Origin: a virus
Lineage: Duplodnaviria > Caudoviricetes
IMG/VR virus record: IMGVR_UViG_3300017909_003568
Location: 1-35,753 of that record
Length of the DNA stretch: 35,753 nucleotides
Direction: 5' to 3' (one strand)
Part shown: positions 11,966 through 27,655 of the stretch, piece by piece
How the letters are laid out: every line of letters begins with the position of its first letter
Numbering within the stretch: position 1 is the stretch's first letter
The notes under the pieces: generated by a model
Databases searched by the model: none
The model's input: the letters and a program-made list of their open reading frames with translations, nothing else
What the model was told of the DNA's origin: nothing
Position numbers and translations under genes: made by a program

Positions 11966-12437
11966 AATATAATATAAGCCCTGTTTGGTACTTAAAAATA
12001 GTTTTTTTTGCAAATGGGGATCTGGTACTTCTTGTTTGTACTTTTTGTGGAAGGTGATCTGACATTGTATATTGCGATTCTATCCTCCTAACACCCATTA
12101 AAATTGATTCATTCGCTTTATGCTTTCAATATATGGTGTAGTACTTTAGAAAATTATTATAAGAGAATGGAAAGGGCTTTTAACCTATTTATTTATTGAT
12201 AAAATTTCTACTTATTTTTAATAGCTTTTTTTTTGTGGTTGTTTATTGGTTTATTTATTGTATGTGTATATATATGTATTTGTATTGGCTCGGCTTTGGA
12301 TCCGCTCAAATGATATGCAGCCTGGCTTGAATAATTTGTCAATAATTCTTTAGGTATTCTCCTTAGAATTTAATATATTATTTAGAGGACTTTGTGGTCT
12401 TTTTAATAGTTACTAAATAAATATAAGGATGTTAAAA

Positions 12438-12584
12438 ATGAGAAATAAAAATAATGAAATAAAATACATATTAAATATATACTATAAGTCTATGGTTCAT
12501 ATATTCGGAATCACTGCTACAATTACTTTGTTGTGTTTGGCTTTTAGATTAATTAATTGGTTGTTAGTTGGGGGGGCTTTTTAA
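12438..12584 (+). CDS. First early gene: 48-aa membrane peptide; not in the ORF track
   Basis: AAGGA SD; MRNKNNEIKYILNIYYKSMVHIFGITATITLLCLAFRLINWLLVGGAF. Confidence 0.55.
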   Translation: MRNKNNEIKYILNIYYKSMVHIFGITATITLLCLAFRLINWLLVGGAF

Positions 12585-12585
12585 G

Positions 12586-12897
12586 ATGGTTAATTTAAAT
12601 AAATATATAAAGAATAATCCAAGTAATGGAAAATTAGAAAAAGTTAAATTCCAATTTGATTCTGAAGAAATATTTGATGGTTTTTCTGATGGTTCAACTT
12701 GGAATGGTTTCGATAACATATACATTAATGATGAAGTTTTTCAAATGGTTCTAGATTGTTGGGCTACTGAAGAAAATAAAGATATATATCAAATTATTAA
12801 TGATGTGTTTTTTGAGTGTGAAGCAGATTTACCATTTGATGAAAAATTAAACTTATTTGATTTAAATGGAATGGTTACATTTATATATAAAAACTAG
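12586..12897 (+). CDS. Hypothetical acidic early protein
   Basis: ORF with TWNGFDN motif; ATG 12586 follows the upstream stop. Confidence 0.65.
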   Translation: MVNLNKYIKNNPSNGKLEKVKFQFDSEEIFDGFSDGSTWNGFDNIYINDEVFQMVLDCWATEENKDIYQIINDVFFECEADLPFDEKLNLFDLNGMVTFIYKN

Positions 12898-12961
12898 TAC
12901 TGATGAGATTTTAAAAATCGAAAGCCATCAAAAAAGGAGGTTTAAAGATGGCTCTGCTAGT
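12893..12961 (+). ncRNA. Type I hammerhead ribozyme
   Basis: Stem I ACUAGUA/UGCUAGU; core CUGAUGA 12900-12906; stem II GAUU/AAUC; GAAA 12920-12923; stem III GCCAUC/GAUGGC; CUC cleavage triplet ending at C12954. Confidence 0.92.
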
Positions 12962-12968
12962 AAACTAA
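12948..12968 (+). other. Mini-ORF MALLVN inside the ribozyme, crossing the cleavage site
   Basis: AGGAGG at 12935-12940 in loop III, 7 nt before ATG GCT CTG CTA GTA AAC TAA. Confidence 0.4.
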
Positions 12969-12985
12969 AAAATAAGGAATAAAAA

Positions 12986-13777
12986 ATGAATAACGTAAAA
13001 TTACTTTCAAATGGTGAAACCAACTACAAAATAAGTAAGAATAAAAAATTGGGCTATTTAACATATAGTTTAAATTTTGCTCATAGTGATTTAAGTGGGT
13101 TTAATGTTTGCCCAATGGCTCAGAGATTAGGATCCGCAAAGCCAAATAAAAAATTAAGTTCTTGCTCTTCTGTATGTGTTGGTGCTAATGGTTTCGCTTC
13201 AATACATCCATCAGTTTTAGAATCTAGAATAAATAAAACTCAAGCTTTCAAATTAGATACTAAAAATTTCATGTTAAAATTAGTTTCTGAAGTTGAAAAC
13301 GCAATAAAACTTGCTAAGAAAAAAAATTTAAAACCTACTTTTCGATTAAATGCTTACTCTGATATACTTTGGGAAAATGTAAATTCAATAGATCAGAATC
13401 AAAAAATGAATATTTTCGAGATGTTTCCAAATGTTACTTGGTACGATTATACAAAAATACATAATAGAAAAGTTCCAAAAAACTATCAATTAACTTTTTC
13501 ACATTATGGAAATTTTGATAAAACTTCTGAAGCCCTTGAAAATGGCTTCAACTCTGCTATTGTTTTTGAAGAGTTACCAAGTAAAATAAAAATCAATAAT
13601 AAAATATATTCTGTAATTGATGGAGATAAAACAGATTTAAGAATCGATGAAAAGATAAATAATAAATCGGTTGTAGTTGGTTTAAAATTCAAAGGCTCTA
13701 AAGCAAAGTTAAAAAATGCTTTATTAGATGGCTTTTGTATTAGTAAAAATAATAAATCTTTAATTTGGGAGGTGTAA
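12986..13777 (+). CDS. Gp88-like protein (radical-SAM-like Cys motif)
   Basis: NVCPMA...CSSVC, RLNAYSD, WYDYTK, YQLTFS, IDGDKTDLR, VVGLKFKG. Confidence 0.75.
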   Translation: MNNVKLLSNGETNYKISKNKKLGYLTYSLNFAHSDLSGFNVCPMAQRLGSAKPNKKLSSCSSVCVGANGFASIHPSVLESRINKTQAFKLDTKNFMLKLVSEVENAIKLAKKKNLKPTFRLNAYSDILWENVNSIDQNQKMNIFEMFPNVTWYDYTKIHNRKVPKNYQLTFSHYGNFDKTSEALENGFNSAIVFEELPSKIKINNKIYSVIDGDKTDLRIDEKINNKSVVVGLKFKGSKAKLKNALLDGFCISKNNKSLIWEV

Positions 13778-13779
13778 AA

Positions 13780-13917
13780 ATGATTTGTTGTGATTTATGT
13801 AATAAAGAAGAGTTTGAAAGTTCAATACATTTTGATGAGTCTTTAGAAATTTGGCTTTGTTTGGTTTGTGTTGACTTATATTCAGATGAAGAATTAAAAG
13901 AAATAATGGAGGTTTAA
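13780..13917 (+). CDS. 45-aa zinc-finger protein; not in the ORF track
   Basis: GGAGG SD; CDLC...CLVC. Confidence 0.65.
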   Translation: MICCDLCNKEEFESSIHFDESLEIWLCLVCVDLYSDEELKEIMEV

Positions 13918-13919
13918 AA

Positions 13920-14123
13920 ATGAAATTTGAAAATAAAATTAAAAAAGTAATATTAAATAAATTAGAAGATGATATTATTTCTAATATAATTCATAATAAT
14001 ATGATGTTTGACGAAACAACAGAGGAACCAACTTTCGGTAAATCTGATAGAGTTAAAATTATAAACATGGATAGAACAATTAAAGAAATTATAGATTATA
14101 TTTATAATGAATTTAGTAACTAG
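13920..14123 (+). CDS. Hypothetical protein
   Basis: GGAGG SD, 67 aa. Confidence 0.65.
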   Translation: MKFENKIKKVILNKLEDDIISNIIHNNMMFDETTEEPTFGKSDRVKIINMDRTIKEIIDYIYNEFSN

Positions 14124-14132
14124 CCCAAAATT

Positions 14133-14168
14133 AGGGGGGTGTCTTGGTATGGATGCCCTCCTTTTTTT
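14133..14168 (+). terminator. Rho-independent terminator
   Basis: GGGGGGTGTC/GATGCCCTCC stem (with G-U pairs) followed by T7. Confidence 0.8.
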
Positions 14169-14260
14169 GTGTGTTTGGTTATATTTTGGGGCAAAAATTT
14201 TTTAGATCCGCAGCAAAATTATAAAAATGAATAATAATAATAATAAAGGGAGTTATAATA

Positions 14261-17975: not shown

Positions 17976-18246
17976 AAACATAGAGCATGAATGCGAACTG
18001 TTCGCAAAAAAAATGATGGAATTAAATCCAAACGTAATGATAGAATTTAATGTGCATGATACAAATGAGATGGCTGCTGATCTGGAAACACCTGGAGATA
18101 GAATGGAAAATAAAATGGATAGAGCAGATTATATGCTTCTTTGGTATCAATGGATGACTTATAAATGTCCTACTGCACAAGAACAAAACAGATTTAACAA
18201 AATGAACAAGCAAGATCAATATCAATACTTAAAGGAGAATAAATGA
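17959..18246 (+). CDS. Hypothetical protein
   Basis: TAAGGA SD; start 17959 or 17965. Confidence 0.6.
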   Translation: MKMKVKNIEHECELFAKKMMELNPNVMIEFNVHDTNEMAADLETPGDRMENKMDRADYMLLWYQWMTYKCPTAQEQNRFNKMNKQDQYQYLKENK

Positions 18247-18524
18247 AAATAAATAATATGACTAAAGGTGAATGGGGTAAAGTTAGAGCTTACTTTGATG
18301 TAGTAAGTGAAGATGGTTTTACTCTTAAAGGTTTCAAATTAATACAAGCCAATGATATGTTTGTAGGCTTTCCTAGTCAAAAAAACAAAGATGGTGAGTA
18401 TAAAAATACAATCTATGCAGACAAGGTTGTGCAGCAAAAACTTAATAAACTAGCAATAGATTATTACAACAACAACTCAAATAATCAAAGTGTATCATCA
18501 CAATCTGATGATATTCCATTTTAA
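18243..18524 (+). CDS. SpoVG-fold nucleic-acid-binding protein with an SSB-type acidic tail
   Basis: KVRAYFDV...FTLKGFKLIQ...MFVGFPSQKNKDGEYKNT (SpoVG pattern); ends in a disordered linker and DDIPF. Confidence 0.7.
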   Translation: MKINNMTKGEWGKVRAYFDVVSEDGFTLKGFKLIQANDMFVGFPSQKNKDGEYKNTIYADKVVQQKLNKLAIDYYNNNSNNQSVSSQSDDIPF

Positions 18525-23337: not shown

Positions 23338-23885
23338 TAATATCCTCCTGATCCTCCTGAACTAACACCACTTGTAGATGTTGTTGTTCTACGTCTTGTT
23401 TTAGTTTTTGTTTTATCTACTTTAGGCAATCCATAATCAGGCAGATTGTATGAAGTTATTGCAACTTTACCTTTTCTTCTTTTATCTTTAAAATTATCCC
23501 AAGTGTCTGCTTCTATATCCATAGACCAATTACTTGATCCCCAAGACAATCCACTCTTTGTAAATTTTTCTGTATATCTTTCTGCTTTATTGTTACAAGC
23601 AATAACGTCAATAACTTGCATAAAACCTTCATATGTAAATAATATTTGATTATTTAAAGTTAAATTATTTAATGTAAATATAATTATAGTATTATTGTTA
23701 CCTTGTAAATACCAACCATCTAGAAGTTGTGGTGTTATAACAGGTTTTCCTTCAAATTTTATTTGTAAACCTGCAACACCAGATAATGAATTTACATAAC
23801 ATTCGCCATCATCGCAGGATATAGTTACAATTTCTTCTAATCTAGTGTTTTTGTTGTATTTTTTATTTAAATCTATAACTTTCAT
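23337..23885 (-). CDS. Cohesin-like beta-sandwich protein with a basic, Ser/Gly-rich tail
   Basis: VAGLQIKF, GWYLQGNNNTIIIFTL, ILFTYEG, VIDVIAC strand pattern; coupled (TAATG) to the dockerin-bearing gene. Confidence 0.5.
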   Translation of the reverse strand: MKVIDLNKKYNKNTRLEEIVTISCDDGECYVNSLSGVAGLQIKFEGKPVITPQLLDGWYLQGNNNTIIIFTLNNLTLNNQILFTYEGFMQVIDVIACNNKAERYTEKFTKSGLSWGSSNWSMDIEADTWDNFKDKRRKGKVAITSYNLPDYGLPKVDKTKTKTRRRTTTSTSGVSSGGSGGY

Positions 23886-26800
23886 TAATTACCTAATATT
23901 TCTCCTACTAAAGTTACTACATCTAACACATTAACAATACCATCACCTGTTATGTCTGCATTATCGCTAACTTCTTGTTCTCCTAATATCATTTGCAATA
24001 AAATAACCACGTCTAATACATTAACTATTCCATCTTGGTTTATATCGCTAGATAAATCAGTATAAACACCATCTTGTGTAAATGTTAAATATTGAACATT
24101 ACTATCATTATATACTTTTATCATGTATGTGACTTCTATGACATCATCTTCTGAATCTAATTGAAAATCATATTTTTTAGATAAATCAACTTTTCCATTG
24201 TAATTATTTGCCATATTAGATATACTTTTTGTATGATTTATAATATTCATAGCTGAAGGTGCATTTTCTTCTGAATATATACCATTTTGTAATGGTTCTA
24301 TATTACTTTCTTCAGGAAATGTTATAGGATTGCCACTACTTGTATAAACATTAGTTACAAATATATCATAATCCCAATCCTGATCTAAATTTGTTACTAC
24401 ATTAGCTGTTATTGGATTTAATAAATTATTTCCATTTTCCCAACTAAATTGAAATGTTGGTAATTCAGGCTCATCAACAAACTCATCTACTACATTATCT
24501 TGATTGTAATTAGGATTATCAGTTGGATCACCTAAATCAAAATTACCTTGTCCATCATTACCTATAGTATCCACAACATTTTCATCTGCAAACATATCCT
24601 GATCAGGAAACCCATAGTCACCACGATGCATTTGAATAGCCTCAATAGTAACTTTGTCTAATGATTTTGATACTTTTGTAACAAAGAACACATCGTATAT
24701 ATACTGACCATTTCTTTGTTGTGGTTTTGTATAGTCATAACCGAAAGCAAGTTTATCACCTAAAAGCTGATCAAACTTAATATAATCTCCTACTTCTAGG
24801 TTAATATAACTTATTGGTAGTTGTAGTTTTGTTATTAAATGTTGATTAGCATACCAACATACTAACTTTTTTTGTAATTTTCTAGCTGTAATATCATCTC
24901 TAATGTAATCAGTTTCTACTTCTAATTTACATTCGTTAGTTTTTAATCCAAAATATTCAACATTATATTGATTTTCAGGTTGCCCTACATACATAAATTC
25001 AGATAAAGTATCTAAATTTTCATATGTATTACCATCATTGTCAATTAAAGGGTAGCCTGTTTCTTTGTCATATTCACCCGATGCATAATTTTTTTTGTAT
25101 TTTACATTTACTTGATTGTATATATCATCTATTTTTGTAAGTTCATACGAATAAGTAATTATATCTTGATTATTTAAAATAACAACGTCATCATATGATT
25201 CTATAATTTGTTTGTTTTCTAGAAATTTAAACTGTCCAAGCTCATTAAAGCTAGGTATAATTGTGGATGATTTAAACATATTTTCAAATACTTCTTTTGC
25301 TTCTTGCTGTTCATTTAATGTAAAAGCATATTGCCAATTATCTGTTGTATTTGAAAGTTGTGCCTCTCCCTCATAATTTAATTCTTCATTTAATATATCT
25401 AACATAATTTTATCTGCTTGTGTATATGGGTTTAATATGTTAGGTTCTACCATTTTAAATTGTAGTTCTATAGGTCCATAATTACCATATTCTACTGAAT
25501 TTCCACCAGGTAATTCAAAAAGTTTTATTTTATATAATCCTGTACCATCATCATATGGATATTGCCAATTTATATATGTTCCATCCCATATAGTAAAATC
25601 TTGTATTAATACATCCAATTGTATTTGATTATTATCAATAAAATTTTGCAAATATTGTGCAGAAGAAGCATTGTCAGATACATCTGTACCTAAAGTAAAT
25701 ATATATATTTTTTCACCTAAGTCATCTTCTGTAACTTCTACATTATGTACATTTATAAAATCTGAAACAACATTTTGATAATCTGATTGTGCTACTCTAC
25801 CTGCTACATCTAAATAAAAAGTTTCGTTTAAGGGATCAGTTATAACTGCATCTTGTAAAACCCAAGCATTGTATAATTGTGCTGCAACAAAACCTTCATC
25901 ATTACCTACTGTCGAACCTTTTTTAGGATATTGTGGTATACCAAATTGTACACTATTAAAATCAGTAGTTTTGTTAAAAGATTCTGATATAGCTTCACCA
26001 TTAAATACTGCTACTGATCTTTCTGTGCTATCTTGATTGTCATAATTTACTTGTTCAAAATCAGAATTAGGTATGTTAGGTGGATCTAAATTTAATAAAT
26101 CAGTTGCATATAAAGCATTTTCATCTTGTATACCTTGTTCTAATACAACTAAAAAATTATTAGTCCAAAATTTTGCTGGATATGCAAATCTAGAATTTTG
26201 TTGAGAACTCATATCACTTAAAGAATGATATTCTGCATCATAAATTAATTTAGTGACACAATCGTAGTTTCCTACATTTTCTTTTAATATAAGACGTATA
26301 TAAGCACCACCTGATTTATTGTATTCAGGTCTTTGTCCATCTACATTTCTTCCACATATATACAATCCATCGGTTATAGTGCCATTTTGTATTCTTATAG
26401 TAGGAAAAAATCCATCCCTATTGTTTTGTAACCATTGAGTATCAACAGCAGAAAAAACTCCACCATTTACATTTTCATTAGATAATGTAGGTTGCCACCA
26501 AGTTTGATCGCCATTACTCCAATTATCATCATAAGCATCTGTATTAAATATATGCTCTTTTTGATAAGGCTCAAATCCACCTGATTCACCACTAACAAAA
26601 TTGGTAAATCCATATATACGATTTATAGAATCAAGATTACCACCTTGAATATTGTCACAATATGTAAAACATTCAATTTTTTCTATAGGTCTATAGAATC
26701 TAGTTGGTAAACCATATAAACCTTGTAATGCTACTAAAGCATCAGAATTTATAACTATAGATGCAGATGTGTCATTACCATTACTTTGTTTAAAATTGTA

Positions 26801-27655
26801 CAATTTATCATTAACAGGTAGTTCATAATCACCAAAACCCCAATCATCTGATAACACTCTAAATATAGGTGAAAAATTTTCTTTGTAAACTGATAAAAAT
26901 GCTTGTGTACTTTTTAGATAACCTTGTGTATATAATCTATGCCCTTGACCTAATTCGTATCCCCAATTTTCAGATTGTGAATCCCACATACCAGACACCA
27001 ATTTACTAGGCTTATCTATATGAAATTCACCTACTTTATTAATAAGTTGTCCCATATCATCTAAACCATAAAAACGTGTGATTAAAGGTGATTTATCAAC
27101 AAAACCATAAACCATAGGAAATGGATTGCCTCTATCATTTTCTTTGTATATTAAATCATCAGGAACTAATGTGCTAGGTATTTTAGTGCTAAGCATTTGT
27201 TCTGTAATATCTTCTAAAGTAAGAGATACTGTTTCTTGTGATTGATTATAACGTCTAACAGTTCCAGTATAAACAAGTAAACAATCTTCTATTTTATCTA
27301 TGCCATTTGCACAGTAATAAATTTCACATACTGCATTTAGTAAATTTTGTATATCATCACTAAATACTTTACCTTTATAGTTTACATTAGATATAGATAA
27401 AGATACGTTAGATATAGTGTATTTGTTATTTTCCAGATCAGCTTTACTTTGTATGTTTGGTGTATTTAAAAGTAATGCATCAAAATTAATCCCACTAATA
27501 TTAGTTTCTTTAATAGATAAATTAACAGATTCTGCTTGATCCCATGTATCTCTTTCGTCTAATCTTACATTTTTATAAAACCTAATAATAGGAAATAAAG
27601 ACGTTCTTACACCATTACCTAATGCTTGTTTAAACTTTAATGGTAATTCTATCAT
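23885..27655 (-). CDS. Tail tip/hub protein (1256 aa) with a C-terminal dockerin domain
   Basis: Follows the tape measure; PFPMVYG, NQVNVKY, NLEVGDYI hub motifs; ends in two 22-aa dockerin repeats. Confidence 0.8.
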   Translation of the reverse strand: MIELPLKFKQALGNGVRTSLFPIIRFYKNVRLDERDTWDQAESVNLSIKETNISGINFDALLLNTPNIQSKADLENNKYTISNVSLSISNVNYKGKVFSDDIQNLLNAVCEIYYCANGIDKIEDCLLVYTGTVRRYNQSQETVSLTLEDITEQMLSTKIPSTLVPDDLIYKENDRGNPFPMVYGFVDKSPLITRFYGLDDMGQLINKVGEFHIDKPSKLVSGMWDSQSENWGYELGQGHRLYTQGYLKSTQAFLSVYKENFSPIFRVLSDDWGFGDYELPVNDKLYNFKQSNGNDTSASIVINSDALVALQGLYGLPTRFYRPIEKIECFTYCDNIQGGNLDSINRIYGFTNFVSGESGGFEPYQKEHIFNTDAYDDNWSNGDQTWWQPTLSNENVNGGVFSAVDTQWLQNNRDGFFPTIRIQNGTITDGLYICGRNVDGQRPEYNKSGGAYIRLILKENVGNYDCVTKLIYDAEYHSLSDMSSQQNSRFAYPAKFWTNNFLVVLEQGIQDENALYATDLLNLDPPNIPNSDFEQVNYDNQDSTERSVAVFNGEAISESFNKTTDFNSVQFGIPQYPKKGSTVGNDEGFVAAQLYNAWVLQDAVITDPLNETFYLDVAGRVAQSDYQNVVSDFINVHNVEVTEDDLGEKIYIFTLGTDVSDNASSAQYLQNFIDNNQIQLDVLIQDFTIWDGTYINWQYPYDDGTGLYKIKLFELPGGNSVEYGNYGPIELQFKMVEPNILNPYTQADKIMLDILNEELNYEGEAQLSNTTDNWQYAFTLNEQQEAKEVFENMFKSSTIIPSFNELGQFKFLENKQIIESYDDVVILNNQDIITYSYELTKIDDIYNQVNVKYKKNYASGEYDKETGYPLIDNDGNTYENLDTLSEFMYVGQPENQYNVEYFGLKTNECKLEVETDYIRDDITARKLQKKLVCWYANQHLITKLQLPISYINLEVGDYIKFDQLLGDKLAFGYDYTKPQQRNGQYIYDVFFVTKVSKSLDKVTIEAIQMHRGDYGFPDQDMFADENVVDTIGNDGQGNFDLGDPTDNPNYNQDNVVDEFVDEPELPTFQFSWENGNNLLNPITANVVTNLDQDWDYDIFVTNVYTSSGNPITFPEESNIEPLQNGIYSEENAPSAMNIINHTKSISNMANNYNGKVDLSKKYDFQLDSEDDVIEVTYMIKVYNDSNVQYLTFTQDGVYTDLSSDINQDGIVNVLDVVILLQMILGEQEVSDNADITGDGIVNVLDVVTLVGEILGN
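23888..24046 (-). other. Dockerin domain (duplicated Ca-binding repeats)
   Basis: DINQDGIVNVLDVVILLQMILG-EQEVSDNA-DITGDGIVNVLDVVTLVGEILG. Confidence 0.9.

Follow-up and report, generated by a model that had tools for sequence, protein, structure and literature searches.

The leader of the Gp88-family gene in the genome of an uncultured phage carries a genuine hammerhead ribozyme motif of a common kind, into which a conserved ribosome site, restricted to one clade, has been inserted in loop III. Self-cleavage of the motif is predicted and considered very likely. The best explanation of the whole element, favoured at slightly less than even confidence, is that constitutive mRNA processing would be accompanied by a brief co-transcriptional ribosome relay that delays the cut, and that the element is not an on/off switch.

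The hammerhead motif and its genomic setting

The window, that is, the whole stretch of DNA analysed (35,753 bp, 31% G+C), is recorded as a complete virus with direct terminal repeats. Terminase, capsid, tail and lysozyme genes are present, and the metagenome runs containing the region are labelled seawater or marine, the two best of them perhaps being the sample of origin. The ribozyme is surrounded by small plus-strand genes in a row, which begins opposite the small terminase gene and is probably an early operon, ordered as a 48-aa ORF, a 103-aa ORF, the ribozyme, Gp88, two small ORFs and a terminator-like hairpin (Table 1). The 103-aa gene, which more likely starts at the ATG at 12586, gave no match in Pfam, PHROG or NCBIfam, and the hairpin with its T-tract likely closes the processed Gp88 block. 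A promoter scan did not rise above chance (18 vs 17), and blastn against annotated phages returned five weak partial matches, none covering the region. Two other features of the window may help to identify the host, namely a SpoVG gene (18243-18524) and a dockerin domain that ends a 1,256-aa protein (23885-27655). In Gp88 itself, three cysteines (C42, C60 and C64) do not vary across an alignment of 25 relatives; they resemble a radical SAM arrangement and suggest that a metal or iron-sulfur cluster is bound there. A structure model of Gp88 (mean pLDDT 62.5, poor over residues 1-77, including the cysteine region) found no Foldseek match at E 0.001.

Table 1. Features of the ribozyme region, in window coordinates (SD, Shine-Dalgarno)
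Feature	Position	Strand	Remarks
Upstream early gene, 103 aa	12586..12897	+	TAG within stem I
Type I hammerhead motif	12893..12961	+	Predicted cut after C12954
Stem I, 5' strand	12893..12899	+	Partner strand 12955-12961
Core C3-A9, CUGAUGA	12900..12906	+	
Stem II, 4 bp, with 5-nt loop	12907..12919	+	A12915, last loop base, putative partner of U12961
GAAA (12920-12923), stem-loop III, U16.1 (U12953), C17 (C12954)	12920..12954	+	
Stem III strands	12924-12929/12947-12952	+	
SD AGGAGG in loop III	12935..12940	+	-12.3 kcal/mol; 0.5 kcal/mol to open
Mini-ORF MALLVN (stop), six codons	12948..12968	+	ATG buried in stem III; crosses cut site; stop 17 nt before Gp88
Gp88's own SD, AAGGA	12974..12978	+	Weaker, -6.2 kcal/mol; unstructured, 1.6-1.8 kcal/mol to open
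Gp88-family gene	12986..13777	+	PF17338, phrog_1617
Terminator-like hairpin (14133-14162) plus T-tract	14133..14172	+	One found vs shuffle mean 0.5

The initial annotation described a complete type I hammerhead, and every element of it was found. The core agrees with the definition C3 U4 G5 A6 N7 G8 A9, G12 A13 A14 A15, U16 and H17 (PMC3088659). A descriptor search of both strands of the 35.7-kb window returned this hammerhead only, and 300 dinucleotide shuffles gave no equally good match and 0.01 loose matches per shuffle. The minimum-energy structure is the hammerhead fold (z -2.24; 6/200 shuffles equally stable). The proposed check against Rfam was negative: the window had no match at gathering scores, and none of the hammerhead models matched up to E 10 within 12000-14000.

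The three helices, with an open-ended stem I, are also seen in the relatives described below. In an alignment of six distinct rows (five clade ribozymes and the more distant L101), 99% of cells were paired and compensatory change was found in 11/18 pairs, covering all three stems, with slid controls at 52% or less. This covariation supports the structure and is not to be read as a probability, because few lineages are represented and the window itself supplied the structure.

In place of A12893-U12961, the seventh stem I pair, there may be a tertiary contact between U12961 and A12915. These two letters have the polarity of the Hoogsteen contact in fast minimal hammerheads (PMC11875169), so that activity at cellular Mg becomes more likely. 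The window shares with the minimal hammerheads of O'Rourke et al. (via PMC11875169) the U at position 1.7 and the last loop II A, whereas its loop has five bases in place of their GNRA tetraloop; most phage examples in the present set carry the swapped pair, with A at 1.7 and U in the loop.

The motif is a member of a common short phage form. Across loci L001-L527, at least 116 distinct type I hammerheads were parsed after removal of one mis-parsed form, in samples biased by the search patterns; a 6-bp stem I and a 4-bp stem II with a 5-nt loop are typical, and the median distance from the cut to the next ATG is 26 nt (n = 105). In sets that were not selected for these letters, the last loop II base covaries with position 1.7 (U-A 19, A-U 10, A-A 3, U-U 0 and G-G 1 in 80% clusters; Fisher p 4e-6 at 80% clustering, 2.5e-4 at 70%), and the predominant pair, U with A, has its two letters the other way round from the described U1.7-A pair. 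Within the family, loop II opens with U in 84/84 cases, and 40/43 unselected members have A or G at position 1.8. Three loci (L172, L174 and L190) hold four type I hammerheads within ~1.5-3 kb, one ahead of each gene, after which comes a short A-rich word that recurs, with no SD; several hammerheads in one locus have been described in prophages (PMC3088659). The type I hammerheads of L166, L175 and L187 make up a distinct sub-form: stem I has 5 bp, the letters at the cut are UA, and a hairpin downstream is conserved.

The upstream gene's stop codon does lie in stem I (TAG, 12895-12897), as had been claimed. As a special feature it was ruled out, since the layout is common in the family. Among 105 non-clade ribozymes with enough upstream DNA, where open frames of at least 40 codons were taken as genes, the stop overlaps stem I in 35, overlaps the core in 15, lies within 12 nt in 27 and further away in 11, and is absent in 17. 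Within the clade, the stop ends 3 nt ahead of the core in 9/9 sequences examined; one version uses TAG, the other TAA.

Conservation of the ribosome site in loop III

The ribozyme accompanies Gp88 among close relatives. Relatives of the gene were sampled as the best 80 of 121 and the best 80 of 171 loci (160), of which 8 were left out for having too little upstream DNA. A type I hammerhead stands ahead of Gp88 in the same place in 9/9 relatives of at least 80% identity, in 1/28 at 55-80% and in 0/115 below, such that 142/143 more distant loci among these best-scoring samples have no hammerhead before the gene. At L023, L027 and L147 (~3874), a type I hammerhead lies ~100 nt downstream, not upstream, of a distant Gp88 gene. 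The close clade, the window included, provides five distinct ribozymes, which represent only two to three independent clusters. They fall into two versions with hardly a letter of stems I and III in common. One sub-version has an extra U after A9, an insertion of a kind tolerated in hammerheads. The upstream gene next to the ribozyme varies in identity (100, 86, 50% and unrelated), and two contigs from sequencing run X6 join other DNA to position 12891. Upstream genes are replaced while the ribozyme stays with Gp88, and the ribozyme therefore travels as a Gp88 leader.

The exposed AGGAGG in loop III, 7 nt before the ATG at 12948, and the frame MALLVN that spans the scissile bond and ends at 12968 were both confirmed as first described. 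SD strength was scored against a 9-base anti-SD. By this measure the loop SD is the only one to reach -12 kcal/mol among 1,500 ATGs of the genome; none of the 46 gene starts in the window does so (median -6.25). Random loops reached -8 kcal/mol in 0.4% and -12 in 0 of 20,000 trials, and permutation of the loop's own letters reached -8 kcal/mol in 1.8%.

Conservation of the site had been proposed as a check, and it holds for the arrangement, not for the letters: an SD (-8.4 to -12.3 kcal/mol) followed 6-7 nt on by ATG or GTG is present in 5/5 distinct clade ribozymes, as a leader switch would have it, but the second version carries GGGGG and GTG rather than AGGAGG and ATG. The remaining loop III letters differ among the five, and the SD is present in all nine clade records and lost in none. 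Among the rows listed, the differences in the two X6 contigs fall in the spacer and the A-run and leave both SD and ATG untouched. The peptide and frame of the mini-ORF differ between the clade versions and are thus not conserved, and conserved sensory codons, as in an attenuator, were not found. The GTG and TTG starts of the second version are weaker, and one locus, L090, has a weak TTG in frame with Gp88. The stops reached from the ATG and GTG starts fall -4 to +18 nt from the Gp88 start, inside the range of about -4 to +25 nt that applies to coupling leaders; such a nearby stop is also likely by chance, as expected in A/T-rich DNA.

Outside the clade, an SD reaching -8 kcal/mol plus a start in stem-loop III was found in 1/111 ribozymes, by a pattern that required the motif; a stem-loop III of at least 28 nt is present in only 16 of them, so that the fair contrast is 5/5 vs 1/16. 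The single case lies on the minus strand of L502 (core at 501), where stem-loop III contains both a strong SD and an ATG; its SD is partly paired, and neighbouring starts there show no SD. The 60%-identical relative L101 has the hammerhead and no SD. A search for the same layout in 71 viral and 19 genome loci, with patterns that required a 13-nt stem-loop II, parsed 21 hammerheads as type I and 15 as type III and found none at 56 loci, and only L502 was positive; a search with a clade-shaped pattern returned only the two known contigs. A start triplet within stem III occurs in 52/111 non-clade ribozymes and alone means little. By these sequence comparisons, the loop III SD is an unusual, clade-restricted and conserved insert in a common hammerhead.

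Accessibility of the site was examined as the energy needed to open folded RNA at equilibrium. In 5/5 clade ribozymes the loop SD opens for 0.2-0.7 kcal/mol, while the stretch from SD through start costs 8.6-13.2 kcal/mol and the whole initiation footprint, which extends from about -20 to +13, costs 13.4-15.4 kcal/mol; 11 real starts of the phage cost 1.0-9.8 kcal/mol. At these equilibrium values the start would not compete with the folded state, and since it costs more to open than real starts, initiation is likely limited to the moment before folding. The Gp88 start lies just downstream of the predicted cut, as had been proposed, with its ATG at 12986 after a 31-nt leader. Its site is open before and after cleavage, with a change in opening cost of at most 0.7 kcal/mol (5/5); the downstream SD is not paired before the cut and freed after it, and the idea that cleavage frees the Gp88 SD was thereby ruled out.

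Readings of the ribosome site

In the favoured explanation, the hammerhead would cut the early transcript after C12954, leaving the Gp88 block with its own 31-nt unstructured 5'-OH leader. A ribosome following RNA polymerase would terminate the upstream gene within stem I, and the small subunit released at this stop would pair with the emerging loop SD before stem III closes. Such capture is inferred on kinetic grounds: the subunit could catch the SD, which emerges from the polymerase ahead of the closing strand of stem III. The ribosome would then read six codons across the cut site and re-initiate at Gp88 17 nt on, so bridging the untranslated gap of 88 nt between the upstream stop and Gp88, and the ribozyme would fold and cut seconds later. 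As the start is buried once the RNA has folded, later ribosomes would use Gp88's own SD on the processed mRNA. The stability of a 5'-OH leader depends on host nucleases, which differ between RNase E and RNase J hosts, and a stabilising or destabilising effect on the Gp88 block would depend on them in turn.

The relay is consistent with the clade pattern of SD and start, with the open SD and with stop distances that lie within the range in which coupling is reportedly efficient (PMC12548453). The processing component agrees with the proposal that intergenic hammerheads process phage transcripts into gene-length mRNAs (PMC3088659), and the RiboJ ribozyme gave ~twofold more transcript in a reporter test (PMC6206723). 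Against the relay stand the open site of Gp88, which needs no relay, the absence of the SD from L101, the unconserved peptide and the small number of clusters. A pseudoknot or long-range partner for the G-run was ruled out, which favours the relay: no conserved site was found in nine sequences, and the best recurring match, the terminator stem, is 1.1-1.3 kb distant.

A less probable account, and on balance an unlikely one, is that the loop SD is a neutral relic in an ordinary constitutive processing site, left by recombination of early-gene cassettes at SD-rich junctions. Loop III of the second version (L001) has 17 nt in common with SD-like sequence in the upstream gene tail of L087, an 11-nt word of the window loop recurs in a real start region, and GGRGG words are frequent in the early region. 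The swapping of upstream genes beside the ribozyme, the buried start codon and the two to three independent clusters point the same way. If SD-bearing sequence is exchanged locally, the SD could persist without selection. However, the G-run is retained, 6-7 nt from a start, in spite of change in the rest of the loop and in the two stems beside it, none of the nine clade records has lost the SD, and this SD is the strongest at any ATG in the genome and unpaired in 5/5. The upstream gene tail of L087 (~2855-2900) holds two SD-like junction stretches, and their sequence suggests cassette shuffling at ribosome sites.

Stronger forms of control by the ribosome are improbable. Subunits that bind loop III during its transcription might hold the ribozyme open, as effectors, such that the share of early mRNA that is cut and the life of the Gp88 block report the supply of free ribosomes in the host; this is doubtful. 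Slightly more doubtful is the translation-controlled switch of the initial annotation, in which plentiful ribosomes, repeatedly initiating in loop III and terminating in stem I, would keep the ribozyme unfolded, and scarce ribosomes would permit the cut and alter the stability of the Gp88 block. The initiation footprint, as generally given, reaches from stem III across the cut site into stem I, so that initiation and the folded ribozyme are mutually exclusive by geometry, and this part of the proposed interplay stands, along with the conserved SD and start and the stop in stem I (9/9 clade sequences). A steady-state switch does not follow, given the buried start: the cost of opening the footprint exceeds that of any of the 11 real starts, which makes re-initiation on folded RNA unlikely. 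In addition, a six-codon ORF implies short occupancy, the stop-in-stem layout is family-wide, and cutting leaves access to the Gp88 site unchanged.

Still less likely is a role after the cut, in which a ribosome on the upstream fragment would shield the cyclic-phosphate end, block re-ligation or mark the mRNA for tmRNA-linked decay. The loop start lies 7-8 nt before the end of the fragment in 5/5 clade ribozymes, the fragment ends SD-AUG-GCU-C with no stop, and stem I alone holds the cleavage products weakly (~-6 kcal/mol), yet stem III remains in place after cleavage, with the start still buried in it. An SD can shield the 5' end of an mRNA; this role was ruled out for Gp88 mRNA, the loop SD being upstream of the cut. 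A CsrA-type GGA loop was dismissed as one loop version has no GGA, and a functional mini-ORF peptide as its sequence is not conserved.

Relation to known systems and significance

The closest natural counterparts are the intergenic hammerheads of phages and prophages, which have the same consensus core, the same three stems and the same intergenic place shortly before a start codon (PMC3088659). The internal ribosome site is absent from that description: the terms 'ribosome' and 'Shine' occur 0 times in its main text, while its supplementary alignments may list the family or the tertiary pair (PMC3088659). No natural hammerhead with an internal SD-led ORF was found in the literature searched, which included few of the subscription papers, and the accessible part of PMC13481778 holds nothing on an SD-led ORF in a ribozyme. 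Synthetic hammerhead and twister switches likewise combine a ribozyme and an SD in one leader; in these the SD of the downstream gene is paired and the cut frees it (PMC5052635), whereas the window has an additional, exposed SD upstream of the cut, and that of Gp88 itself stays open throughout. The element therefore does not belong with the synthetic SD switches that cleavage activates (PMC5052635; bioRxiv 2025.04.24.650125).

Translational coupling leaders (PMC12548453) and bicistronic designs resemble the window in placing a short ORF with a strong SD so that it ends close to the next start. Unlike in the coupling leaders (PMC12548453), the ORF of the window runs through a self-cleavage site, its start is buried, and the second site needs no melting. 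The glmS ribozyme, described in a review section as the only well-understood bacterial self-cleaving ribozyme, is also a self-cleaving element in a bacterial mRNA leader; it is controlled by a metabolite (PMC6765202), whereas control in the window, if any, would come from the ribosome.

If the SD is neutral, the window ribozyme would be an unremarkable member of a common phage family that escapes detection by Rfam. The 70-nt element offers a direct test of whether translation times or gates a natural hammerhead, for which natural variants with unrelated stems keep the layout of SD and start, and related ribozymes without the SD provide controls.
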